The position numbers were made by a program, and so were the translations under genes. Shown in pieces: positions 2,593 through 26,319 of a DNA stretch of 64,000 bases (positions are counted from its first letter, which is position 1; each line of letters begins with the position of its first letter). The stretch spans positions 673 through 64,672 of IMG/VR virus record IMGVR_UViG_3300046791_000095. One strand, written 5' to 3'. The notes beneath the pieces are model-generated. The model ran no database searches. It saw only the letters and a list, made by a program, of their open reading frames with translations, and was not told where the DNA came from. The DNA comes from a virus (taxonomy: Duplodnaviria; Caudoviricetes).

Positions 2593-3020
2593 GCGAGGAA
2601 CCGATCATCGACCCGAAGGAAGCGAATGGCTGGATCGGGGTGGACTTCGATGCCACCCTCGCCGAGTATCACGGGTGGGACATCTCGAAGGGCGCCCTCG
2701 GACCGGCGATTCCCAGGATGATGGCCCGTGTGCGTGCGTGGCTCAAGGCTGGTCGCGAGGTGCGCATCATGACGGCCCGCACTGGCGAGGAGCAGGAGCT
2801 TCTCATCCAGACGTGGCTCCATGACAACGGGCTGCCCAAGCTCCCGATCACGAATCAGAAGGATCGGATGATGTACCAGCTTTGGGATGACCGCGCGATT
2901 CAGGTCCGCTCGAACACGGGCGAGACTGTGGACGAGGAAGTCATCCGACTGAAGCGGGAACTCAAGCGGGTCTACGACTCGCTGCGTGCGTTCAAGCAGA
3001 CGCTGGAGGAGATCGAATGA
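2589..3020 (+). CDS. HAD-superfamily phosphatase (Pnkp 3'-phosphatase-like)
   Basis: DFDATL motif I, TAR motif II, K...WDDR motifs III/IV. Confidence 0.7.
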   Translation: MSEEPIIDPKEANGWIGVDFDATLAEYHGWDISKGALGPAIPRMMARVRAWLKAGREVRIMTARTGEEQELLIQTWLHDNGLPKLPITNQKDRMMYQLWDDRAIQVRSNTGETVDEEVIRLKRELKRVYDSLRAFKQTLEEIE

Positions 3021-3751
3021 AACTCTACCTCGTAGGCGGGGCGGTTCGTGACTACGCCCTCGGTGTGAAGGGGACGAAGGACTACGACTTCGCTGTCGAG
3101 GCGGATTCGTACAAAGACATGGTTGTTGGCTTGCGCGCTGCTGGTGCAACCATCTGGCAGGAGCGACTTGAGTTCGTGACGGTCCGGGCTCAGTTCCCTG
3201 TGGTGCTCGGCTCTTTCGGCGGGCTGCTCCCGACGGGCAGTCGTGTCGTTGATGCTGACTTCACGCTCTGCCGGGCTGAGACTCAGTATTCGGACCTACG
3301 TCATCCTGACACGGTGACGCCTGCCACTCTCGATGTCGATCTCAGCCGGCGTGACTTCACGATGAATGCGATGGCTGTGGGTGAGAATGGTCAGTGGCAC
3401 GATCCGTACAACGGATGGGATGACGCTGAGGATCATGTCCTCAAGACGGTCGGACATCCTCAAGACCGGTTCACCGAGGACCCACTTCGGATGCTGCGGG
3501 CTCTCCGCTTCGCCATCAAGTACAACCTGCGCTTCAACGCTACTCTCGCGGCTGTGCTGGACGACAGGAGGCTTCTACGCGGGATCGAGACTCTTCCGGC
3601 CGAGCGGGTGCGCGAGGAGTTGAACAAGGCTTTCAGTGCGGACAGCTACCGCACGATGTATTACCTGATGACCCGCTTCCCGGAACTTGGTGCAGCCGTC
3701 GCCACCTATCACCCGAACCTCAAGCTCAAGGTGGTTCAGGAGGGAATGTGA
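3017..3751 (+). CDS. cca: class II tRNA nucleotidyltransferase (CCA-adding / poly(A) polymerase family)
   Basis: LYLVGGAVRD, DYD, RRDFTMNAMA, EDPLRMLRALRF, ERVREE motifs. Confidence 0.9.
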   Translation: MKLYLVGGAVRDYALGVKGTKDYDFAVEADSYKDMVVGLRAAGATIWQERLEFVTVRAQFPVVLGSFGGLLPTGSRVVDADFTLCRAETQYSDLRHPDTVTPATLDVDLSRRDFTMNAMAVGENGQWHDPYNGWDDAEDHVLKTVGHPQDRFTEDPLRMLRALRFAIKYNLRFNATLAAVLDDRRLLRGIETLPAERVREELNKAFSADSYRTMYYLMTRFPELGAAVATYHPNLKLKVVQEGM

Positions 3752-4133: not shown

Positions 4134-4487
4134 ATGCCATCACAACATCCGGGCGATGACGGGCGGAGCGCGTGGAACCGTGGCCCCGAGATCATCGCTG
4201 CTGAGCAACGCATCCTGACGTACGCCGACGCACTCCTCTCGTGGTGTCGGGCTTCTACGTTCGATACGCAGTACATGGTCAAGCTCGCAGACTTCTTCAC
4301 GCACACCCGCAAGTACAATCCTGGGGGTGAGCCTGTGCCGATGGGTGAGACCACGGCATGGATGCTTGAACGGCTTGATCCCGACGCGAACCGTTTTCTT
4401 GTTGAACTCATGAGGGCTGCATGGGAACTGAGATGCTGGAAGGAACGCTACGGAGAGATCACGAAGGAGGAGAAGGATCGGCTATGA
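4134..4487 (+). CDS. hypothetical protein
   Basis: GGAGGT RBS before ATG4134; coupled to next gene. Confidence 0.6.
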   Translation: MPSQHPGDDGRSAWNRGPEIIAAEQRILTYADALLSWCRASTFDTQYMVKLADFFTHTRKYNPGGEPVPMGETTAWMLERLDPDANRFLVELMRAAWELRCWKERYGEITKEEKDRL

Positions 4488-5227
4488 AGCGGACCTTCGT
4501 TGTCGGTGACGTGCATGGCAGCATCGAGCGTCTCATCGAACTGCTCCTCAAAGCTGGATGCATGCGAGAGACCTACCCGAACTCTGACATGCAGATTGAC
4601 TGGGATGGCTACAAGATGAATCCCGGGATCGAGGTCGTGCAGGTGGGCGACCTTGGTGACTTCGGACAGCAGGACCCGACGCGTGACTGGATGTGCTACA
4701 CGTTCGCGAGAGCACTCGGCATCACCGTCCTCATGGGCAATCACGACGCCGCGTGCTTCGACACCTTCTCTCATTCGTTCCGAGGTTATCGTACACCTTC
4801 ATTCCAAACGCTCATGGTGATGCGAGAGGTCAGTCCCAAGCTGGCAGTAGCGCGCAGTGGGTACCTGATCACTCACGCCGGTCTCCATCCGTCCTACATG
4901 CCGGTGAAAGCTACGCCGGAAGAACTGGCTCTGGCCTTGAGTTCAGCGGGTCAGCTTCCTGTCGTCACGGACATCGGCCCTCCTCGGGGTGGGTTCGCGA
5001 AGCAGGGTGGAATCCTCTGGCGTGATGATCGCGAGGACCTCTACGACGTACCGCAGATTTACGGACACACCTCGGGCATGATGCGCAAGCACGGACGATC
5101 CTACTGTATCGACGTGGGCAACAAGACCAACGGGTCTCTCGCCGGCATCTGGCTCGACACGCAGCAGATCGTCGCCATTGGTCCCGATGCGAAGATGCAC
5201 GAGACCCCTTTCCCGGAGGATGCGTGA
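4484..5227 (+). CDS. calcineurin-like metallophosphoesterase
   Basis: GDVHG, GDLGD, GNHD, HAG, GHT motifs. Confidence 0.9.
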   Translation: MKRTFVVGDVHGSIERLIELLLKAGCMRETYPNSDMQIDWDGYKMNPGIEVVQVGDLGDFGQQDPTRDWMCYTFARALGITVLMGNHDAACFDTFSHSFRGYRTPSFQTLMVMREVSPKLAVARSGYLITHAGLHPSYMPVKATPEELALALSSAGQLPVVTDIGPPRGGFAKQGGILWRDDREDLYDVPQIYGHTSGMMRKHGRSYCIDVGNKTNGSLAGIWLDTQQIVAIGPDAKMHETPFPEDA

Positions 5228-6441
5228 AGAAGTCTCATCCACTCCTCGTCGGAATCGAGAACGTCAAACCCTACAAGCTGACCGAGGGCCACGAGATGTA
5301 CAGCGTGCGCCCTCCTGCCATGCAGATCGAGGACTTCCTCCCTGTTGGCGGCGTGATGGGCATGACCTCGTATCCCGGCGTAGGCAAGACCTGGCTCGCT
5401 CTGGAGATCGCCCGGTCCGTAGCATCAGGCACACCGTTCCTCGGCCGATACAAGGCGATGAGGGGCGGTGTTCTTTTCGTTGGTTCCGACTCCTCTCTCT
5501 ACGACTACGCTCGACAGTGGACGCGCCTCACGCGCAACACCGAGGACGCAGTCAACGTGTTCGAGCCGGTTCGCTTCCTCGTGCAGTCCACCTTCATGTT
5601 CGAGGACCGCGACGAGATCAGGAAGCTCATCCGCACGCACCAGAAGTTCGAGTGGGGCGAGACTACCATCGGTCCGAAGGGACCTGAACGCGAGCATGGC
5701 TTCCACACGCTCGTCTTCGACACGGTCTCTCGCCTCACTCGCGCGAATCAGAACGACAACACCGAGATGGAAGAGGTCTTCCGGAACATCCGCATGCTGG
5801 CCGAGGCGACCGACTGTGCCATCGTCCTGCTGCACCACAACTCGAAGAAGAGCGAGTACAACGACGGCTCCGATTGGCGTGGTGCCATGTCGCAGATCGG
5901 CGCCCTCGATTCGTGGGTGCAACTCTCGCCGCACCGGAAGGACAAGCACCTCGTCGGAATCCAGTTCAAGAAGTTCCGTGGCATCACGCCACCCGACTTC
6001 TCTTACCGCATGGCAGTGAGTGATCCGGCGTCCGCGAGTCTCTCCATCACGGATGAGCCCGTGACTACCGCACAGAAGATGCAGCATGACGTGGTCGCAG
6101 ACGCCGTGAAGGAGTTCATCGTACAGCATCCGGGAAGACGGGCGTGCGAGATTCGCGATGCTCTGTGGCCCAAGTTTCAGGTTGGCGTTGCTGAGGTCAA
6201 TGGCACGACGACGGCCTTCCCGGTGATCAAGGATTTCACCACCGCAGTGAACAACCGCCTCGCAGCGATGATGCAGGTACAAGTGATCAAGCGTCGGCAG
6301 AACAATGAGGGCAAGGCGGTCTACACCGTCGTTACTCCACAATCAACCGAGGGAGCCCCGGCTCCTGCTACGGGAGAACAGAGTGAAGTCAGAACATCTC
6401 GGCGTCGTCGTCGTAAGGCTGCAAGTCCCGCGTCTGCATGA
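5224..6441 (+). CDS. RepA-like SF4/AAA replicative helicase
   Basis: Walker A PGVGKT, Walker B LVFDT, LLHH, RGAM..IGALDS, KKFR. Confidence 0.8.
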   Translation: MKKSHPLLVGIENVKPYKLTEGHEMYSVRPPAMQIEDFLPVGGVMGMTSYPGVGKTWLALEIARSVASGTPFLGRYKAMRGGVLFVGSDSSLYDYARQWTRLTRNTEDAVNVFEPVRFLVQSTFMFEDRDEIRKLIRTHQKFEWGETTIGPKGPEREHGFHTLVFDTVSRLTRANQNDNTEMEEVFRNIRMLAEATDCAIVLLHHNSKKSEYNDGSDWRGAMSQIGALDSWVQLSPHRKDKHLVGIQFKKFRGITPPDFSYRMAVSDPASASLSITDEPVTTAQKMQHDVVADAVKEFIVQHPGRRACEIRDALWPKFQVGVAEVNGTTTAFPVIKDFTTAVNNRLAAMMQVQVIKRRQNNEGKAVYTVVTPQSTEGAPAPATGEQSEVRTSRRRRRKAASPASA

Positions 6442-7291
6442 TGGGCATCGGTACCTGCTGAACGCCGTCACGGCGATTCATGAGGATGTCCTTGTTGTCA
6501 TCGGCGAGTCTGAGGCACGCGGAACGATGAAGAACCCGTTGCCCTTCTCTGTCCGTGAAGCTATGGTCAGAGAAGCATACCCGAAGGTGAAAGTCGTGCA
6601 GTTGCGTGACTGCTCCTCAGACGAGAAGTGGTCGTACAATCTCGATACGCGAATTTGGGACGAACGAAGCGGATACGAACTTGGAAAAGGAGCGATGCTG
6701 TACGGTGGCCGTGACAGTTTCCTCAATCATTACCAAGGAGAGTATCCGACGTTTGAACTTCCTCCGGTGCGGCCGATGTCAGGCACAGAAATTCGTGAGG
6801 CTGTTTGCCAGCGGGATAGTGAAGAGTTCCGTGCCGGAATGATCTTCGCAGCGAAGAATCGCTATCCCACATCGTACCAGACGGTGGACGTAGCCATCTT
6901 GAATCAAAGCGAGCAGATTCTCCTCGGAAGAAAGAAGGGTGATGGCGACGCGTGGAGATTCATTGGGGGCTTCGTTAGTCCCAAGGACCCCACGCTTGAA
7001 TACACGGTGATGCGTGAAGTACGAGAAGAGACTGGTCTAGAGGTCGGGTCTCCCCGCTACATCGGTTCTTTCCAGGTGGAGGACTACCGATACCCTTCGG
7101 ACGGTCCAGATAGAATCATGACTGCCCTCTTCACCGTCAAGTACGTATTCGGTTCACCCGAGCCGTCTGACGACATCGACGATTGTTGTTGGTTCTCGTT
7201 ACATGATCTTCCTGACATCGTTCCACAACATCATCCGCTGGTGCATCTACTCCTCGGCTATCGTGCCATGAAAGGACTACCCGATGCTTGA
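6383..7291 (+). CDS. nadM: bifunctional NMN adenylyltransferase / Nudix ADP-ribose pyrophosphatase (NadM-Nudix, NatV-like)
   Basis: RLQ..HDGH, KNPL, SGTEIR, Nudix box GGF...REVREETG; GTG6383 with GGAG RBS. Confidence 0.9.
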   Translation: MKSEHLGVVVVRLQVPRLHDGHRYLLNAVTAIHEDVLVVIGESEARGTMKNPLPFSVREAMVREAYPKVKVVQLRDCSSDEKWSYNLDTRIWDERSGYELGKGAMLYGGRDSFLNHYQGEYPTFELPPVRPMSGTEIREAVCQRDSEEFRAGMIFAAKNRYPTSYQTVDVAILNQSEQILLGRKKGDGDAWRFIGGFVSPKDPTLEYTVMREVREETGLEVGSPRYIGSFQVEDYRYPSDGPDRIMTALFTVKYVFGSPEPSDDIDDCCWFSLHDLPDIVPQHHPLVHLLLGYRAMKGLPDA

Positions 7292-8660
7292 GAACAACAT
7301 CATCCTCGCGACCGACAGCTACAAGGTCACCCACTGGAAGCAGTATCCGAAGGGAACGCAGCGTGTGTTCTCCTTTCTCGAATCTCGGGGTGGCGAGTTC
7401 AAGACCACGACCTTCTTCGGTCTCTCCTACATCATCAAGCGGTTCCTCGCTGGCAAGGTTGTCACTCACGAGAAGATCGCGGAGGCGCGCGAGTTCTTCA
7501 AGCTTCACTTCGGTGACGACACCCTCTTCAATCTGGACGACTGGAACTACATCCTCGCCATGCATGGTGGACAACTCCCGGTCTCCATCCGTGCCATCCC
7601 TGAAGGCACTACCGTTCCCACTGGTAACGTCCTCATGACCATCGAGAACACGGACCCGAACGTGCCGTGGCTCACGAACTACCTAGAAACGATCCTCATG
7701 CAGGTGTGGTACCCGACGACCGTCTGCACCCAGTCGCGTGCGATGAAGCAGGACATCAGTGAGGCAATGAGGTTGTCGGGCGCCGACATGGCTGGTCTCC
7801 CGTTCAAGCTCCACGACTTCGGCTACCGGGGCAGTACTTCGTTCGAGTCGGCCGGCATCGGCGGCTGCGCGCACCTCGTGAACTTCATGGGCACCGACAC
7901 GATGGCTGCCTTGCAGGTCGCTCGAAACTACTACAACGAGCCGATGGCTGGCTTCAGTATCCCCGCTGCCGAGCACAGTACGATGACGGCATGGGGAAAG
8001 ACGAACGAGGCCGAGGCGTACCGGAACATGCTGGAGCAGTTCCCGAAGGGCTTGGTTGCGGTCGTCAGCGATAGCTACGACATCTATCACGCGTGCAGTG
8101 AAATCTGGGGTGACGAGTTGAAGGATCAGGTCCTCAACCGTGACGGTGTCGTCATCATCCGCCCGGACAGTGGTGATCCTGTCAAGGTCATCCTGAGTCT
8201 GCTGAGCATCCTGGGTGACAAGTTCGGGGTCTCGACGACGAGTACGGGCGACAGAGTTCTGAATCCGAAGGTGCGCCTGATTCAGGGCGACGGGATCGAC
8301 CGAGAGATGTTGACTCACATCCTCGATGCAATGCTCGATGAGAAGTGGTCCATCGACAACATCGCGTTCGGTTCTGGTGGTGGCCTACTCCAGAAGGTGA
8401 ACCGCGATACCTGCAAGTTCGCTCTGAAGTGCAGTGCCATCGAAGTCAATGGCAAGTGGCTTGACGTGATGAAGGACCCGATCACGGACAGTGGGAAGCG
8501 GTCGAAGGCGGGCCGGCTGATCCTCGTCAAGGATAAGGGTGGATACCGGACTGTGCAGGAAGGGAGTAGTGGCTCGAACCTTCTCGAAGAGGTCTTCCGT
8601 AACGGTCAGCACATCCTTCCTCCGACGCTGTCGGGGATTCGGGAGCGAGCTTCGCGCTAA
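7284..8660 (+). CDS. nadV: nicotinamide phosphoribosyltransferase (NAMPT)
   Basis: TDSYKVTH, LHDFGYRG, AAEHS, SDSYD, RPDSGDP, QGDG, FGSGGGLLQK. Confidence 0.95.
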   Translation: MLENNIILATDSYKVTHWKQYPKGTQRVFSFLESRGGEFKTTTFFGLSYIIKRFLAGKVVTHEKIAEAREFFKLHFGDDTLFNLDDWNYILAMHGGQLPVSIRAIPEGTTVPTGNVLMTIENTDPNVPWLTNYLETILMQVWYPTTVCTQSRAMKQDISEAMRLSGADMAGLPFKLHDFGYRGSTSFESAGIGGCAHLVNFMGTDTMAALQVARNYYNEPMAGFSIPAAEHSTMTAWGKTNEAEAYRNMLEQFPKGLVAVVSDSYDIYHACSEIWGDELKDQVLNRDGVVIIRPDSGDPVKVILSLLSILGDKFGVSTTSTGDRVLNPKVRLIQGDGIDREMLTHILDAMLDEKWSIDNIAFGSGGGLLQKVNRDTCKFALKCSAIEVNGKWLDVMKDPITDSGKRSKAGRLILVKDKGGYRTVQEGSSGSNLLEEVFRNGQHILPPTLSGIRERASR

Positions 8661-9197: not shown

Positions 9198-9425
9198 ATG
9201 AGCAACTCTCAGCAGTCGTACCAGAGCGGAGGCGTCGGGTTCACCGGCCTTCTCGCCGTTGCGTTCATCGTCCTGAAGCTCATCGGAGTCATTCACTGGT
9301 CGTGGTGGTGGGTCACTGCTCCCCTCTGGGGCGGTCTTGCGATCTTCATCGCGATCATGATCGTCCTGCTTCTCGTCTTGGGCATTGGCGAACTCATTGG
9401 TGGACATCAGCGTCCGCCTCGGTAA
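9198..9425 (+). CDS. small two-TM phage membrane protein
   Basis: GGVGF..LL..FIVLKLIGVIHWSWWWVTAPLW, a widespread phage family pattern. Confidence 0.75.
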   Translation: MSNSQQSYQSGGVGFTGLLAVAFIVLKLIGVIHWSWWWVTAPLWGGLAIFIAIMIVLLLVLGIGELIGGHQRPPR

Positions 9426-9438
9426 GAAAGGAAATTCT

Positions 9439-10728
9439 GTGAGCAACATTCGCTGGTTCACCGACATCAACGAGGTTGAGCCCGAAGCGCGTGCGCAGGT
9501 GGAACGGACGGCGAGCATGCCCTTCGTCAAAGGCGTAGCCGTCATGCCTGATGTTCACTTCGGCAGAGGCTCGACTGTGGGCACCGTTGTGGCTACGAAG
9601 GGTGCAGTCATGCCTGCCTGTGTGGGCGTGGACATCGGCTGTGGGATGATCGCGGTCCGGACGAATCTCAAGCCCGAGGCTGTGCGCCCGCATCTCGTGA
9701 AGATTCGTGAGGGCATCGAACGACGCATCCCGCTCGGGATCGGCCAGCGGGGGATGAACTCGAAGATTCTCCCGACGGCCGAGTCACGCATTGCGATGCT
9801 CGAAGCTGAGGCTGCGCACGCGTGGGCCGATGTGAATCACATGAACGCCCGCGCGAAGGACTGGCGGAGTCAGTTGGGCTCCCTCGGTGGGGGTAATCAC
9901 TTCATCGAGGTGTGCGTGGGACGCTCCTTCGACAACTACGACGCCGATAGTGTTGGATTTCCTTTTGGCCCGGAGGAGGTCTGGGTCATCCTTCACTCTG
10001 GCTCGCGCGGTGTTGGCAACAAGACGGGAACTCACTGGACCCAGGTTGCCAAGAAGCAGGCGGCCCGGTACAAGTACGACACGTACCTGCCTGATGCTGA
10101 TCTCGCGTACCTTGTGCAGGAGAGCGAGGAGTACCATCAGTACATGAAGGAGTTGTACTGGTGTCAGTCCTTCGCGCAACTCAACCGTGACGAGATGATG
10201 GATCGGGTTATCAATGAACTGTCTTACACACTGTGCGGTGGATACGGAACTCCTGCTCTTCCGTTTGACATCGATCTGCGGAAGGACATGGAGTCTGACA
10301 GGCTCATTGAAGTCGAGCGCATCAACTGTCATCATAACTACGTCAGCAAGGAGCATCATGATGGCGACAACGTCCTCATCACCCGGAAGGGCGCAATACT
10401 GGCGTCTGATGGAACGCGCGGGCTCATTCCCGGTTCGATGGGGGCGAGCAGTTTCATCGTTACGGGCCTTGGGCATTCCGGAGCGTACTGTAGCGCACCT
10501 CATGGGGCTGGCCGCAGAATGTCTCGAACGGCAGCACGAAAGCAGTTCACTCTCGAAGGAGTCACGCAAGAGATGGCGTCGCTCGGCATTGAAGCCCGAG
10601 TCCGCGAAGCAATCGTTGACGAAGCTCCGGGCGCGTACAAGAACATCGACATCGTGATGTTCGATGCGCGGGAGCTTGTGCGTCCGACGCACGTCCTGAA
10701 TCAACTCATCAGCGTGAAGGGAGACTGA
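9439..10728 (+). CDS. rtcB: RtcB RNA ligase
   Basis: MPDVHFG, GVDIGCG, LGGGNHF, HSGSRG, HHNY, PGSMG, HGAGR, DEAPGAYK, terminal KG. Confidence 0.95.
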   Translation: MSNIRWFTDINEVEPEARAQVERTASMPFVKGVAVMPDVHFGRGSTVGTVVATKGAVMPACVGVDIGCGMIAVRTNLKPEAVRPHLVKIREGIERRIPLGIGQRGMNSKILPTAESRIAMLEAEAAHAWADVNHMNARAKDWRSQLGSLGGGNHFIEVCVGRSFDNYDADSVGFPFGPEEVWVILHSGSRGVGNKTGTHWTQVAKKQAARYKYDTYLPDADLAYLVQESEEYHQYMKELYWCQSFAQLNRDEMMDRVINELSYTLCGGYGTPALPFDIDLRKDMESDRLIEVERINCHHNYVSKEHHDGDNVLITRKGAILASDGTRGLIPGSMGASSFIVTGLGHSGAYCSAPHGAGRRMSRTAARKQFTLEGVTQEMASLGIEARVREAIVDEAPGAYKNIDIVMFDARELVRPTHVLNQLISVKGD

Positions 10729-10923
10729 GGATGAACTGCCCGGGCGACCGGCACAACTGGCGCAGAATCTTCTGGTGGACATCACGGCTCCTTTCGTGCG
10801 TCGCTTGCGGAAGAATTGCTGTGAAGACGAGTCAGGTCACGTACAGTATGTTCAAGCACGAGGCTGTGCAGATCGGTGGCTACGCACCCGACCACACCTC
10901 TTCTTGGCACAGAGGAGCGTAAG

Positions 10924-11943
10924 ATGTCTTCTTGGACTTCATACCCGAAGGTGTGGTCGATGGGCCACCGGCTCGTGCAGGACCTCCTGCTAGATGACGT
11001 GATCGTCGAGGAGAAGGTAGATGGGAGTCAGTTCTCGTTTGGCCTCATCGATGGAGAACTCAAGATCAAGTCGAAGGGCGCGATCATCTACCCCGATGCT
11101 CCTCCTGCCATGTTTCGGGGCGCAGTGGAAACAGTCCTCTCGATCCAGGACAAGCTCATTCCTGGGTGGACGTATCGCGCTGAAGTACTCAGCCGGCCGA
11201 AGCACAACGTACTGGCCTACGACCGCGTCCCGCAGGGGAACCTCATCCTATTCGACATCGCGGTCGGTCTCGAAGACTACATGCTGCGTAGCATGAAAGT
11301 AGCAGAAGCTCAGGTGCTCGGTCTGGAGATCGTGCCTGTCGTCTACACGGGCAAGGTCACCTCGGCTGAGCAGGTGATCGCGCTCCTTGACCGTACCAGC
11401 ATCCTCGGCGGCCAGAAGATCGAAGGCGTCGTCGTCAAGAACTACAGCCGCTTTGGAATCGACGGCAAGCCGCTCATGGCGAAGTACGTCGCCGAGGCGT
11501 TCAAGGAGGTCCACAAGGGTGAGTGGCGGAAGGAGAACCCGACAAACAACGATGTCGTGACTCTCCTCGTCAACTCGCTCCGCACTCCTGCACGGTGGTC
11601 CAAGGCGGTGCAGCATCTCCGCGAAGCCGGGACGCTCACCGACTCTCCGAAGGACATCGGTCCTCTGCTGCATGAGATGCAGAAGGACGTGGAGGAGGAA
11701 GAGAAGCAGTTGATCATCGAGCGGCTCTATAAGTGGGCGTGGCCCCATATCCGTCGAGGGATCACCCACGGGTTCCCGGAGTGGTACAAGGAGCAGCTTC
11801 TCGTGAAGCAGTTCGAGACGATGCGGGATCAAGGGATTGTCGTGGATGATGCTGTCCGCTCGCTCGCTGACATTCCCCTTGGTGTCCGTGAGCCTTGGTG
11901 TACGTGCCGCGAAGGACACGAGTGTGAAGGACACCGCGCATGA
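10924..11943 (+). CDS. ATP-dependent RNA ligase, Rnl2-like
   Basis: YPK, motif I EEKVDGSQF, FDI, EGVVVK, K.V...FKE. Confidence 0.8.
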   Translation: MSSWTSYPKVWSMGHRLVQDLLLDDVIVEEKVDGSQFSFGLIDGELKIKSKGAIIYPDAPPAMFRGAVETVLSIQDKLIPGWTYRAEVLSRPKHNVLAYDRVPQGNLILFDIAVGLEDYMLRSMKVAEAQVLGLEIVPVVYTGKVTSAEQVIALLDRTSILGGQKIEGVVVKNYSRFGIDGKPLMAKYVAEAFKEVHKGEWRKENPTNNDVVTLLVNSLRTPARWSKAVQHLREAGTLTDSPKDIGPLLHEMQKDVEEEEKQLIIERLYKWAWPHIRRGITHGFPEWYKEQLLVKQFETMRDQGIVVDDAVRSLADIPLGVREPWCTCREGHECEGHRA

Positions 11944-12313: not shown

Positions 12314-12605
12314 TTTCAACGAGTTGAAGACGGTCACTCGTGTTCGGGCTGAACTCGAACGCGCACAGGAGAAGCACCCCCGATGGCCGAGCGACCTTGG
12401 CCGGCAGCTTCTCGTAGTCTCTGAGGAGATGGGTGAAGCGGTGCAGGCGGGCGTGTCACTCATGGAGTACGAAGACACGGGTGTCGATCTCGATGACTCC
12501 GCAGACCGTACTGTGTGGCACGAGTTGAACGACAAGATCAACAACGAGATGATCCAGGTCGCCGCAATGGCGCTACGTTTCCTCATGAACAGGACGGTCA
12601 GATGA
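12291..12605 (+). CDS. MazG-like all-alpha NTP pyrophosphatase
   Basis: AELERAQEKHP, EEMGEAVQA, EMIQVAAMALR. Confidence 0.65.
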   Translation: MSSDVESSFNELKTVTRVRAELERAQEKHPRWPSDLGRQLLVVSEEMGEAVQAGVSLMEYEDTGVDLDDSADRTVWHELNDKINNEMIQVAAMALRFLMNRTVR

Positions 12606-12790
12606 TGAATCTCAAGGAGCTATGGGCTCAGGTGGCAGGTGCGCCACTTGACGCGGAAGTGGTCATTGCGTTTACCGAGACGACGTACGAGGATGACTCC
12701 GAGATCGAGGAGGACGTTCTTGTCCCGGTCGGGCATGTCAACTTCGACCGGCAGACGAACACGATCACGATCTACGAGGTGAAGCAGTGA
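12602..12790 (+). CDS. hypothetical acidic protein
   Basis: Coupled to both neighbours. Confidence 0.55.
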   Translation: MMNLKELWAQVAGAPLDAEVVIAFTETTYEDDSEIEEDVLVPVGHVNFDRQTNTITIYEVKQ

Positions 12791-13065
12791 TCCGCCCCCT
12801 CGGTCCTCGTCTCGTGGTGAAGCGTCTGGAAGCACCGAAGCTGGCATCGGAGCACATCCTGATCCCGGAGACGATTGAGCAGAAGGCATCGCCCTTCGCC
12901 CTCGTTCTCGCTGTGGGAACTCTTCAGCAGGGTGGCATCAGTGTTGGTGACACGGTGATCCTCACCGACTACTGTGGCGCTCCATGCGTCGTTGAACTCG
13001 ATGGTGAGCGAATCGACGCGATCCTCGTCCCGGAGCACGATGTACTGGCGGTCGTGGAGGAGTAA
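12787..13065 (+). CDS. groES: co-chaperonin GroES (Cpn10)
   Basis: IRPLGPRLVVKR, VLAVG, VGDTV, E.DVLAVV. Confidence 0.85.
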   Translation: MIRPLGPRLVVKRLEAPKLASEHILIPETIEQKASPFALVLAVGTLQQGGISVGDTVILTDYCGAPCVVELDGERIDAILVPEHDVLAVVEE

Positions 13066-13067
13066 CC

Positions 13068-13481
13068 ATGAAGGTGCTAACCATCGGGACCTTCGATCTT
13101 TTCCACGAGGGTCACCTACATCTGCTTCAAGCCTGCCGTAAACTTGCGGGAGGTGACATCGTCGCCGTCGGCGTCAATACCGATGAGTTCGTGAAGAAGT
13201 TCAAGGGCGAGTACCCGGTCAACACGGAGAGAACGAGAGCGGCTGTCGTTGATAGCTGTAGGTACGTCAACCAGACGAAGTACAACACCGACGGCGGTGA
13301 ATGGCTAATCAAGCTAGTCCGTCCTGACATCCTCGTCATCGGTAGCGACTGGGCAAAGAAGGACTACCTCGGTCAGATCGGTATGACACAGCATGCACTG
13401 GACAGTCTTGGAATCCTCCTCGTGTACGTTCCCTACACGGAAGGGATCAGCAGCACGATGATCAAGGAACGCATGCGATGA
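13068..13481 (+). CDS. TagD/RfaE-like cytidylyltransferase
   Basis: GTFDLFHEGH, GVNTDE, GSDW, YTEGISST. Confidence 0.9.
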   Translation: MKVLTIGTFDLFHEGHLHLLQACRKLAGGDIVAVGVNTDEFVKKFKGEYPVNTERTRAAVVDSCRYVNQTKYNTDGGEWLIKLVRPDILVIGSDWAKKDYLGQIGMTQHALDSLGILLVYVPYTEGISSTMIKERMR

Positions 13482-24438: not shown

Positions 24439-24629
24439 CGAGGAGACTCTTCGATGCAACTCTTCGCATCCGGTTGAGTGGAGAAGAGGCGGTTCTCATC
24501 AAGAACTACCTGAAGGAAACAGCCGGGAAGAAGGCTGAGATCGGACACCTCCTCGAAGAGGTGGCTCAGAACGCCATCGATGCTCTTGCCGCACAGGCGG
24601 TGATGTACTCGGAAAGGAAGGACGCATGA
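24435..24629 (+). CDS. hypothetical protein
   Basis: Coupled at both ends. Confidence 0.55.
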   Translation: MTRRLFDATLRIRLSGEEAVLIKNYLKETAGKKAEIGHLLEEVAQNAIDALAAQAVMYSERKDA

Positions 24630-25027
24630 AGTTCGGATTCGATCTCGATGGTACGCTCGACAAGCCGGCACTACGTGACCTCGCCAACATCCTCATCTCA
24701 GCCGGACATGAGGTTCATGTCATCACGGGAACCTTTCCTGAGGCTGGTGATTGGCAGAACGCAGATGCGAAGATGGCAAAGATGAGGCGACTCGGGATTC
24801 CTTTTACGCAGGGATTCTACGATCCGCTCGTTCGGGTGGCTCAGTTGCACATTCTGTACGCAGTCAATCAGGAGTATCCTCGTGACTACCGTCTTGCAGA
24901 CCTGGGTCTCCGCAAGGGTGCCCTTTGTGAGACGCTTGGACTCACGATGATCTTCGACGACAGCATGACGTACTGCGAGATGATTCCGAAGATGGCCGGG
25001 AACACCGTCGTACTCCAGGTGCGCTGA
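24626..25027 (+). CDS. HAD-superfamily hydrolase
   Basis: FDLDGTL, ITG, K...FDD. Confidence 0.75.
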   Translation: MKFGFDLDGTLDKPALRDLANILISAGHEVHVITGTFPEAGDWQNADAKMAKMRRLGIPFTQGFYDPLVRVAQLHILYAVNQEYPRDYRLADLGLRKGALCETLGLTMIFDDSMTYCEMIPKMAGNTVVLQVR

Positions 25028-25597: not shown

Positions 25598-25840
25598 ATG
25601 TCCTACGTCTGGATCAAACTCGTGACGGCGTGTGGCTGTTCAAAGGAGTGGTTGAGTCCAGAGAACTGGACCAGATCAAAGTACGTTGTTTCACTCCCGA
25701 CACCTGTCAAAATAAGTGGAGGAGAACCTGATCTAGCGAACACCTTTCCTCGGACTCGTACTTTCAAATTGTACAACGAGTACTGGGATAATGTTCGGAA
25801 GATTCGTGTTGTCGTCTATGAAGAGTCTTTAGGGGAGTAG
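25598..25840 (+). CDS. hypothetical protein
   Basis: Follows exonuclease; 3' end overlaps tRNA by 10 nt. Confidence 0.45.
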   Translation: MSYVWIKLVTACGCSKEWLSPENWTRSKYVVSLPTPVKISGGEPDLANTFPRTRTFKLYNEYWDNVRKIRVVVYEESLGE

Positions 25841-25906
25841 CGCAGAGGCCAGCGTGCCCGTTTTGGAAACGGGCGGTCGTGGGTTCGAATCCCACCTCCC
25901 CTGCCA
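25831..25906 (+). tRNA. tRNA with TGG (Pro) anticodon on a Trp-type body
   Basis: AGGGGAG/CTCCCCT acceptor, CCCGT-TTTGGAA-ACGGG, GTGGG-TTCGAAT-CCCAC, G73, CCA. Confidence 0.9.
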
Positions 25907-25910
25907 AAGT

Positions 25911-26153
25911 GCGAGGGATACCATAGGTGAAAAGGCCGAGCCGGTCAGGGGAAAGTTGTGGTAGCGAGTACCCCCACCTCCCTCGCATTATCAGTGTGTG
26001 CTTTCCAGAAACCACCACGCAGAAGCGTGAGCGAACTGGATTAGGCTCCAGAGGGAGCAGCACACTACAGCGACCCAAGAGTAAACGTGACGGGCTAAAG
26101 CAATCGCGAGGTCGCGGGCGTAACCCGCGCTAAGCCCGCAGACCTATCTTGGG
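25911..26153 (+). ncRNA. three tandem small structured RNAs between tRNAs
   Basis: Closing stems GCGAGGGA/TCCCTCGC, AGTGTG..TGCTTTC/GGGAGCA.CACACT and CCCAAGA/TCTTGGG, each with internal hairpins. Confidence 0.55.
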
Positions 26154-26159
26154 CATCTT

Positions 26160-26242
26160 AGCTCCCTGATGGAATGCAGACATGCCAGCCTTAGAAGCTG
26201 GTGCCTTCGGGCGTGAGGGTTCGAATCCCTCGGGAGCTACCA
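26160..26242 (+). tRNA. tRNA-Leu(TAG)
   Basis: AGCTCCC/GGGAGCT, CCAGC-CTTAGAA-GCTGG, long variable arm, TTCGAAT T-loop, ACCA end. Confidence 0.9.
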
Positions 26243-26244
26243 TC

Positions 26245-26319
26245 GTGACGGAGGGTGAAGAGTGGAACCGGAGGGCTGTGAATCCTCTTTAGCGGATGCG
26301 ACTTCCGCCCGTCACTCCA
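26245..26319 (+). tRNA. atypical tRNA-His(GTG)
   Basis: GTGACGG/CCGTCAC, GAGGG-CTGTGAA-TCCTC, GCGGA-TGCGACT-TCCGC, TCCA end. Confidence 0.7.

Follow-up and report, generated by a model that had tools for sequence, protein, structure and literature searches.

A phage tRNA with a proline anticodon and a tryptophan-like acceptor end, and its place in a largely phage-borne family of tRNA-Pro(UGG)

The 64,000-nucleotide stretch of phage DNA analysed here (the window, from virus record IMGVR_UViG_3300046791_000095) carries a transfer RNA (tRNA) gene at 25831-25906 on the plus strand that combines a proline anticodon with an acceptor end resembling that of tRNA-Trp. We refer to it as the query tRNA(UGG). 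It is a genuine phage tRNA gene. By sequence comparison it belongs to a family of tRNA-Pro(UGG), borne largely by phages, whose hallmarks are A37 and a G10·U25 pair. The explanation we favour, with somewhat better than even confidence, is that it is an inherited member of this A37 family that reads CCN codons as proline for the late genes. Charging with proline, and a reason for the odd positions, are what we infer as most likely. As such the query tRNA(UGG) is a new variant within the tRNAs encoded by phages.

ARAGORN calls a tRNA-Pro(tgg) at exactly these coordinates, 76 nucleotides long, and the gene passes the Rfam tRNA model RF00005 with 66.9 bits against a cut-off of 29, over the full length of 1-71. 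Its minimum-free-energy fold is a cloverleaf (z = -2.65). A preliminary description of this DNA had pointed to an anticodon TGG lying between 8-bp inverted repeats, an AGGGGAG/CTCCCCT acceptor stem, G73 and A37, and all of these are present in the sequence (Table 1). The anticodon loop reads UU-UGG-AA. The 8-bp palindrome is made up of the normal 5-bp anticodon stem (27-31:39-43) together with 26:44 (G:C), 32:38 (U:A) and 33:37 (U:A), and a perfect stem with a UU-NNN-AA loop is enough to produce it. Such a palindrome is uncommon, not unique. Among 355 distinct tRNAs collected, the anticodon arm is unbroken Watson-Crick over at least 7 pairs in 14 and over at least 8 pairs in three: the query tRNA(UGG), a phage tRNA-Pro(UGG) in the viral contig L044 and one cellular tRNA-Arg.

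Many metagenome runs from soil and rhizosphere have contigs with DNA near-identical to the phage. We examined the assembled Logan contigs of four such runs (X6, X7, X8 and X9), none of them flagged as a possible source; this is a contig-level comparison, in which rare alleles are invisible. Phage contigs cover the anticodon at 25864-25866 with 0 differences in all four independent runs, and those of three of the four cover both U72 and G73, again with 0 differences. No version with a CCA anticodon was found in the contigs of the four runs. Run X8 also holds a 911-nucleotide contig of different context that matches tRNA positions 2-76 with 8 differences (about 89% identical); no difference in the anticodon loop is listed for it, and the sole stem change listed, A39 to G, keeps the pair.

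The family was defined with a pattern that fixes GGGGAGTAGCGCAG, AGCG and UUGGA. In viral contigs this A37 pattern found nine loci with four distinct tRNAs. Two of these sequences, accounting for six loci, have C1-G72 and A73; the third, in the 13-kb viral contig L039, has A1-U72 and A73, and the fourth, from a relative of the phage described below, has U1-A72 and A73. Run on 185,579 prokaryote species, one genome each, this pattern gave just one match, to a truncated non-tRNA fragment. The G37 version of the pattern gave at least 120 cellular and 36 viral loci. ARAGORN recognised 112 tRNA-Pro(UGG) in the listed cellular G37 loci, all with C1-G72 and A73; four apparent cellular tRNA-Pro with U1-A72 proved to be artefacts of the ARAGORN start site. 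The viral G37 set includes a tRNA with A1-U72 and A73 in four contigs. An exact-core pattern with a free loop had no match in viral contigs.

A looser A37 pattern (YUUGGA, 15 free bases and the T-arm) was run on 401 Pseudomonadota and 401 Actinomycetota genomes. It gave 39 hits in the 802 genomes, about as many as the reversed-pattern control, and just two of them are real tRNA-Pro(UGG) with A37. Both of these cellular tRNAs encode CCA, and one adjoins a tRNA-Gln. The G37 form of the looser pattern matched 75 of 80 genomes, the unpublished G048 and G065 being excluded.

The query tRNA(UGG) has the UGG anticodon, A37, G10·U25 and the GTAGCGCAG...AGCG D-arm of the family, and departs from it at A73. 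In an alignment of 11 family sequences U25, and with it the G10·U25 pair, is present in 10 of 10 A37 members, and A73 in 10 of the 11; G73 is found in the query tRNA(UGG) alone, and is absent from every other tRNA-Pro(UGG) that we examined. The first acceptor pair is C-G in seven, A-U in three and U-A in one, and so is paired in all. Across the alignment 99.1% of 231 pairing cells are standard and 13 of 21 pairs show compensatory change, a level that 0 of 500 shuffles reach. The D-stem is GCTC instead of GCGC in three of the ten A37 members (Ruegeria V10, A511 and L326) and in L327. In a pattern-selected and therefore biased sample of 24 distinct phage tRNA-Pro(UGG), 8 have A37 in place of G37. 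The tRNA-Pro of T4 is canonical, with C1-G72, A73 and G37. As a separate observation, a Novosphingobium olei contig (L046, 393-429) carries the 5' half of a tRNA-Pro(UGG) that ends abruptly right after the anticodon and looks like an integration-site remnant.

The history of the anticodon is best seen in a related phage. Two viral contigs carry a terminase 76% identical to that of the phage (residues 7-650), and the complete one, of 61.5 kb, holds tRNA-Met(CAU), tRNA-Pro(UGG) and tRNA-Leu(UAG). The tRNA-Pro(UGG) of this relative is 80.6% identical to the query tRNA(UGG) over 72 nucleotides, and the two genomes share a gene order of a homologue of the open reading frame (ORF) 24626-25027, then Pro(UGG), then Leu(UAG), with no further similarity at the DNA level in the 3-kb stretch compared. 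The relative's gene has U1-A72, A73 and the loop CU-UGG-AA, so A37 is present and the palindrome is broken at C32·A38. As UGG stands at the syntenic locus of the relative, the common ancestor of both phages already had UGG there; the anticodon is inherited and not the product of a recent flip.

The other tRNA of the phage, tRNA-Leu(UAG), has the same peculiarities at positions 1, 37 and 72. In 13 cellular tRNA-Leu(UAG) position 37 is always G, with G1:C72 in 12 and G1:U72 in one. A37 occurs in five of seven distinct phage tRNA-Leu(UAG) and in 0 of 13 cellular ones. The phage of contig L039 has A1-U72 in its tRNA-Pro(UGG), its tRNA-Leu(UAG) and its tRNA-Lys(CUU). Since A37 and A1-U72 are also found together in tRNA-Leu(UAG), they seem to be habits of these phages' tRNAs and not relics of a Trp ancestor, as the reading in the preliminary description would imply; the tRNA-Leu shows that A37 can arise without any inversion of the anticodon. 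Two further observations concern these arrays. That of L039 (5760-7182) also holds a tRNA-Gly with anticodon ACC, and the 15-tRNA phage array of L044 includes, at 12571-12644 on the minus strand, an ARAGORN tRNA with anticodon CUA (reported as 'Pyl'), a possible amber suppressor.

To place the query tRNA(UGG) between tRNA-Pro and tRNA-Trp we used references collected with anticodon-loop and T-arm patterns from 82 genomes of two phyla, the loci of two unpublished genomes being dropped. They comprise 50 distinct cellular tRNA-Trp and 52 distinct cellular tRNA-Pro(UGG), in which G37 is fixed by the search pattern. The tRNA-Trp have A1 in 48 of 50, U72 in 48 of 50 and G73 in 50 of 50. C1, G72 and A73 are invariant in tRNA-Pro(UGG), both in this unbiased set (52/52) and in the pattern-selected cellular set (112/112). 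The identity rules on which the preliminary description relied, A1-U72 and G73 for Trp and C1-G72, A73 and G37 for Pro, therefore hold in the references, G37 being set by the pattern, and agree with what the relevant passages of PMC9976931 and PMC11229370 report.

Judged by these rules the query tRNA(UGG) is a hybrid. From the canonical P-type tRNA-Pro(UGG) it has the UGG anticodon with G35 and G36, the GCGC D-stem and Levitt pair G15/C48 of bacterial tRNA-Pro, A59 and the G2-G5 acceptor run, and it is without C1-G72, A73 and G37. G12:C23 (Pro 48/52, Trp 2/50), G15 (51/52 against 7/50), C48 (51/52 against 6/49) and A59 (49/52 against 9/50) are all Pro-like. With bacterial tRNA-Trp(CCA) it shares A1-U72, G73, the pairs G2-C71, G3-C70, G4-C69 and G5-C68, A9 and A37, and its 3' half is close to that of some cellular tRNA-Trp; U31:A39 (Trp 49/50, Pro 7/52) and the 8-nucleotide D-loop (29/50 against 2/52) are Trp-like too. 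It differs from tRNA-Trp in having UGG, not CCA, U32, not C32, and G12:C23, not U12:A23, with G15 and C48 where A15 and U48 are commoner in Trp.

We then made two covariance models, one for each of these isotypes, with 51 references for Pro and 48 for Trp; one array locus, L295, was left out. The query tRNA(UGG) scores 71.3 bits with the Pro model and 67.6 with the Trp model, a difference (Pro minus Trp) of +3.7. Ten other phage tRNA-Pro(UGG) score 53.5 to 89.6 with the Pro model and 41.9 to 63.5 with the Trp model; five genuine phage tRNA-Trp score 19.3 to 57.8 and 47.4 to 85.4 respectively, with differences of -21.3 to -34.3. With the Pro model the query tRNA(UGG) exceeds every non-Pro tRNA in the panel, of which the highest has 64.9 bits. 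The Trp model is unspecific, giving 70.2 and 67.5 bits to tRNA-Arg, 66.9 to tRNA-Lys and 64.1 to tRNA-Ile. The isotype test is thus close to a tie, leaning to Pro: the hybrid character anticipated in the preliminary description stands, a preference for Trp does not. Nor does its 'Trp-type body' fit a molecule with Pro-like positions 12:23, 15, 48 and 59, scored by a model that rates Arg, Lys and Ile as highly. The body is generic and not diagnostic, and only 1:72 and 73 are specifically Trp-like. PMC12482277 gives tRNAscan-SE isotype scores for one phage's tRNAs, sorted into those consistent and inconsistent with the predicted model. The locus left out of the models, L295 1382-2298 in an Actinomycetota genome, packs 11 tRNA genes with atypical bodies into about 900 nucleotides, and its tRNA-Pro(UGG) lies directly after a tRNA-Trp and has a Trp-like variable region and T-arm with C1-G72 and A73.

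These results can be brought together as follows. Within the A37 family, the first acceptor pair of this phage's tRNA would have become A1-U72 and its discriminator G73. The tRNA would be transcribed together with tRNA-Leu(UAG), and a promoter-like site was found about 38 nucleotides upstream of it by its match to the consensus (1 found against 0.3 expected in shuffles). It would read CCN, chiefly CCA and CCG, as proline, and so probably supplements decoding of the late structural genes, where CCA use is almost twice that of the early genes. Going by crude ORF calls, 164 of the 696 proline codons in minus-strand ORFs (late, structural) are CCA, compared with 56 of the 426 in ORFs of the plus strand (p = 2.8e-5). 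The positions at which it diverges from host tRNAs, 37, 1:72 and 73, most probably reflect a conflict over tRNAs. A phosphoesterase, a CCA-adding-type enzyme, RtcB and a second RNA ligase are all encoded in this genome.

Several results weigh against this explanation. A naive-Bayes Trp/Pro score, which omits the anticodon, the loop, 1:72 and 73 and counts paired positions twice, gives the body of the query tRNA(UGG) an ambiguous +2.3 bits, where the relative's tRNA-Pro has +39.5 and that of L039 +36.2; the leave-one-out ranges of the references overlap (Trp -62.9 to +36.7, Pro -11.9 to +65.2). By identity over 62 positions, the nearest sequence is the cellular tRNA-Trp L211 with 53 matches; a phage tRNA-Ile has 51, a cellular tRNA-Pro 50 and the tRNA-Pro of the relative 49. 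The lead of the Pro model is only 3.7 bits, compared with +6.4 to +32.2 for the ten other phage tRNA-Pro(UGG). The codon CUA shows no enrichment in late genes, again by crude ORF calls. The difficulty lies in charging. According to PMC11229370, G72 and A73 are the main identity elements of bacterial tRNA-Pro; with the P-type prolyl-tRNA synthetase (ProRS) of B. thuringiensis, G72U brings a 270-fold and A73G a 90-fold loss, the worst change at each position, and with the E-type enzyme the losses are 24-fold and 17-fold. The SU10-type capsid and the GTA 3TM holin of the phage suggest that its host is a proteobacterium, and ProRS in that group is P-type. A preference of E. coli ProRS for m1G37 is described in PMC8643618. 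The phage ORFs scanned yielded neither a synthetase nor an editing domain.

These difficulties lead to the first alternative, which we consider unlikely though the best placed of those below: the tRNA may be poorly charged or not charged at all, and serve as a decoy or sponge for a host nuclease or toxin that targets tRNAs, or be a gene drifting out of use. Both acceptor determinants for ProRS are lost, and G37 too; a genome so rich in tRNA repair suggests an attack on tRNAs; and the unmodified anticodon arm can form an 8-bp helix with a 3-nucleotide loop, as RNAfold closes it. Against this alternative, the query tRNA(UGG) is a molecule in which all 21 cloverleaf pairs are intact, the change at 1:72 is compensatory (A-U) and CCA is encoded, and whose sequence is identical in contigs of independent samples. 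The tRNA on the other X8 contig, about 89% identical, likewise keeps its pairing at the listed stem change, and CCA codons are enriched in the late genes.

The query tRNA(UGG) breaks three highly conserved rules of bacterial tRNA-Pro (G72, A73 and G37) yet keeps a perfect, covarying cloverleaf, and the phage that encodes it is fully equipped for tRNA repair. If ProRS charges it, acceptor-end rules would be looser in some hosts than the model enzymes suggest; if ProRS does not, it would be a natural mischarged tRNA or a decoy.

Phage tRNAs are now viewed both as codon supplements and as countermeasures to defences that cleave tRNAs. Changes in the anticodon loop allow phage tRNAs to evade host anticodon nucleases, as reported by van den Berg et al. 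(eLife 2023, PMC10264068). The likeness lies in a loop that differs from the host type, here A37 for G37, and in tRNA-repair enzymes encoded by the phage; the query tRNA(UGG) differs in that its acceptor end (1:72 and 73) is altered as well. The main text of that paper makes no mention of A37, G37, position 37, tRNA-Pro or RtcB, though its supplements may list such loops. In the literature searched, supplementary tables being outside the scope, we came across no account of a phage tRNA-Pro or tRNA-Leu with A37 in place of G37, nor of a tRNA-Pro with a Trp-type acceptor end, which is not proof of absence in either case.

The excess of A37 in phages suggests that independence of TrmD and m1G37 may be a strategy general to phages. 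A bolder proposal, quite doubtful at present, is that phages remodel their CCN- and CUN-reading tRNAs in a systematic way, replacing the TrmD target G37 by A37 and in some lineages changing 1:72 and the discriminator. Such tRNAs would neither need nor be recognised by host factors that read m1G37 or the C1-G72/A73 end, namely TrmD, ProRS gatekeeping, ProXp-type editing and toxins directed at tRNAs. The query tRNA(UGG) would then be the extreme case, perhaps of dual identity with charging by more than one synthetase, or convertible between UGG and CCA by one hairpin inversion.

A hybrid, mistranslating identity is improbable. Here the tRNA would be charged at least partly by the tryptophanyl (TrpRS) or glutaminyl (GlnRS) synthetase and would insert Trp or Gln at proline codons during infection. 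GlnRS also uses G73, a weak 1:72 pair, G2-C71, G3-C70 and A37, all present here, but it needs U35. U72 and G73 are strongly unfavourable for ProRS, and A1-U72, G73 and G2-G5:C68-C71 match the Trp references as well as the Trp determinants given in passages of PMC9976931. With the Trp model the query tRNA(UGG) scores higher than four of the five genuine phage tRNA-Trp, though that model is unspecific. Natural tRNAs of dual identity do exist, such as the tRNA-ProX of Streptomyces and Kitasatospora, which, as portrayed in parts of PMC10404621, carries the anticodon of one amino acid together with identity features of another; in the query tRNA(UGG) it is a proline anticodon on a Trp-like acceptor end, with no synthetase gene found in the phage. 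Against this reading, the same passages of PMC9976931 make TrpRS dependent on the anticodon, a major Trp determinant of which positions 35 and 36 are both wrong here, and GlnRS dependent on the middle anticodon base, which in the query tRNA(UGG) is G. A73 is retained in the relative and elsewhere in the family, which makes Pro identity the family norm, and replacement of Pro by Trp throughout the late proteins of the phage would probably be costly.

The preliminary description had proposed that hairpin template switching inverted the anticodon stem-loop of a tRNA-Trp, turning CCA into TGG, perhaps reversibly. We think this just as improbable as mischarging. The idea has attractions: with a perfect palindrome the event would change the anticodon alone, and the mechanism needs just such a short loop on a perfect hairpin stem as its substrate. 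Inversions of 7-8-nucleotide loops by template switching are documented in rRNA hairpins, as recorded in passages of PMC8794818; those passages cover rRNA and microRNA hairpins and contain no tRNA case, the word tRNA standing once in the main text, and here we found neither an inverted allele nor an inverted ancestor. The Trp-like acceptor end also favours the idea, as do U31:A39 and the 8-nucleotide D-loop, which are commoner in Trp than in Pro references, and a 3' half that matches tRNA-Trp L211 at 28 of 30 positions.

Several details speak against an inversion, however. Inverting the canonical Trp loop CUCCAAA gives UUUGGAG, with G38, and the loop observed is UUUGGAA, with A38. C32, which is present in all 51 Trp references (where the collecting pattern fixes it), breaks the palindrome. 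The overall similarity to tRNA-Trp is matched by unrelated tRNAs, such as the phage tRNA-Ile, and G12:C23, G15, C48 and A59 are Pro-like. A37 and A1-U72 in the phage's tRNA-Leu are inexplicable by inversion. The search for CCA alleles in related genomes that had been suggested as a check turned out negative, the diverged relative keeping UGG at the syntenic locus on its broken palindrome and the contigs of the four runs having TGG only. A scan of metagenome contigs for this D-arm and stem, with positions 31-39 free for UGG or CCA, gave no match. A recent flip is further at odds with A37 and G10·U25, which are common to a phage family that otherwise has A73. UUUGGAG, which reverse-complements the canonical Trp loop exactly, does occur in three further members of the family (XacN1, A511 and the L037 type), and a very old inversion could therefore still lie at the root of the A37 family.

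That the anticodon is an assembly or consensus error, also raised in the preliminary description, has a negligible chance, because TGG is identical in the independently assembled contigs of X6 to X9.

The window is nearly all of the 64,672-bp virus record, which has direct terminal repeats and is rated 100% complete. It encodes a family-A DNA polymerase, a large terminase, a portal protein, an SU10-type major capsid protein, a lysozyme and a GTA-type 3TM holin. The terminase had no tblastn match in cultured phages and the DNA polymerase matches them at only about 22% identity; by these measures no cultured phage is close to it. The 189-residue exonuclease that neighbours the query tRNA(UGG) had no close relative among viral contigs, and the tRNA itself no blastn match in E. 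coli genomes. ARAGORN and Rfam recognise only two tRNA genes in the genome, Pro(UGG) and Leu(UAG).

Table 1. Positions in the 64,000-nucleotide window of the query tRNA(UGG), its parts, and genes and sites discussed with it.
Feature	Position	Strand	Basis or remark
Query tRNA(UGG) gene (A1-U72, G73, A37, encoded CCA)	25831-25906	+	Sequence, ARAGORN, Rfam
Acceptor stem AGGGGAG / CTCCCCT	25831-25837 / 25896-25902	+	Sequence
U72 and discriminator G73 (with A1 at 25831, a Trp-like, non-Pro acceptor end)	25902-25903	+	Sequence
Encoded CCA	25904-25906	+	Sequence
Anticodon TGG (positions 34-36)	25864-25866	+	Sequence, ARAGORN
A37	25867	+	Sequence
Perfect palindrome GCCCGTTT-TGG-AAACGGGC	25856-25874	+	Arms 25856-25863 and 25867-25874
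Promoter-like site (TTCAAA, 18-nucleotide spacer, TG-GATAAT)	25763-25792	+	Consensus match
tRNA-Leu(UAG) (A1-U72, A37, A73, encoded CCA)	26160-26242	+	ARAGORN, Rfam
CCA-adding / poly(A) polymerase head-domain family protein	3017-3751	+	Pfam PF01743, E = 1e-18
Calcineurin-like metallophosphoesterase	4421-5227	+	Pfam PF00149, E = 1.2e-6
RtcB-type RNA (tRNA) ligase	9385-10728	+	PHROG 1075, E = 5.8e-129
Second RNA ligase	10876-11943	+	Pfam PF09414 (RNA_ligase), E = 4.3e-13

The CCA-adding-type enzyme, of interest here for tRNA 3'-end repair, the phosphoesterase, for which RNA end healing is a possible role, RtcB and the second RNA ligase form a full RNA-repair set in the early region. Relatives of the RtcB in cellular genomes are 32-48% identical and spread over many phyla, and are not informative on the host. 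Next to the repair genes lies an NAD-salvage set on the plus strand, with a NUDIX-domain protein (6305-7291), a nicotinamide phosphoribosyltransferase (7284-8660) and a cytidylyltransferase-like protein of NMNAT type (13068-13481). NAD-salvage sets of this kind are used by phages against NAD-depleting defences. The phage also encodes a GroES-like co-chaperonin (Cpn10, E = 2.5e-10) at 12787-13065 on the plus strand.

Two features of the tRNA region itself may be added. A third, very divergent tRNA-like cloverleaf (26245-26319, plus strand), which ARAGORN and Rfam (E up to 1) do not report, begins 2 nucleotides after the tRNA-Leu. It has a 7-bp acceptor stem GUGACGG / CCGUCAC, a loop CU-GUG-AA with a His anticodon, U73, an encoded CCA and a non-canonical T-loop UGCGACU; its fold has z = -1.69 and it scores 25.9 bits with the Trp model. 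The 253-nucleotide spacer between the two recognised tRNA genes (25907-26159, plus strand) folds into three domains and far more stably than its shuffles: it reaches -102.7 kcal/mol (z = -4.14), which none of 200 shuffles equals. By analogy with the annotated rnaC and rnaD of the T4 cluster, these domains may be small stable RNAs co-transcribed with the tRNAs.

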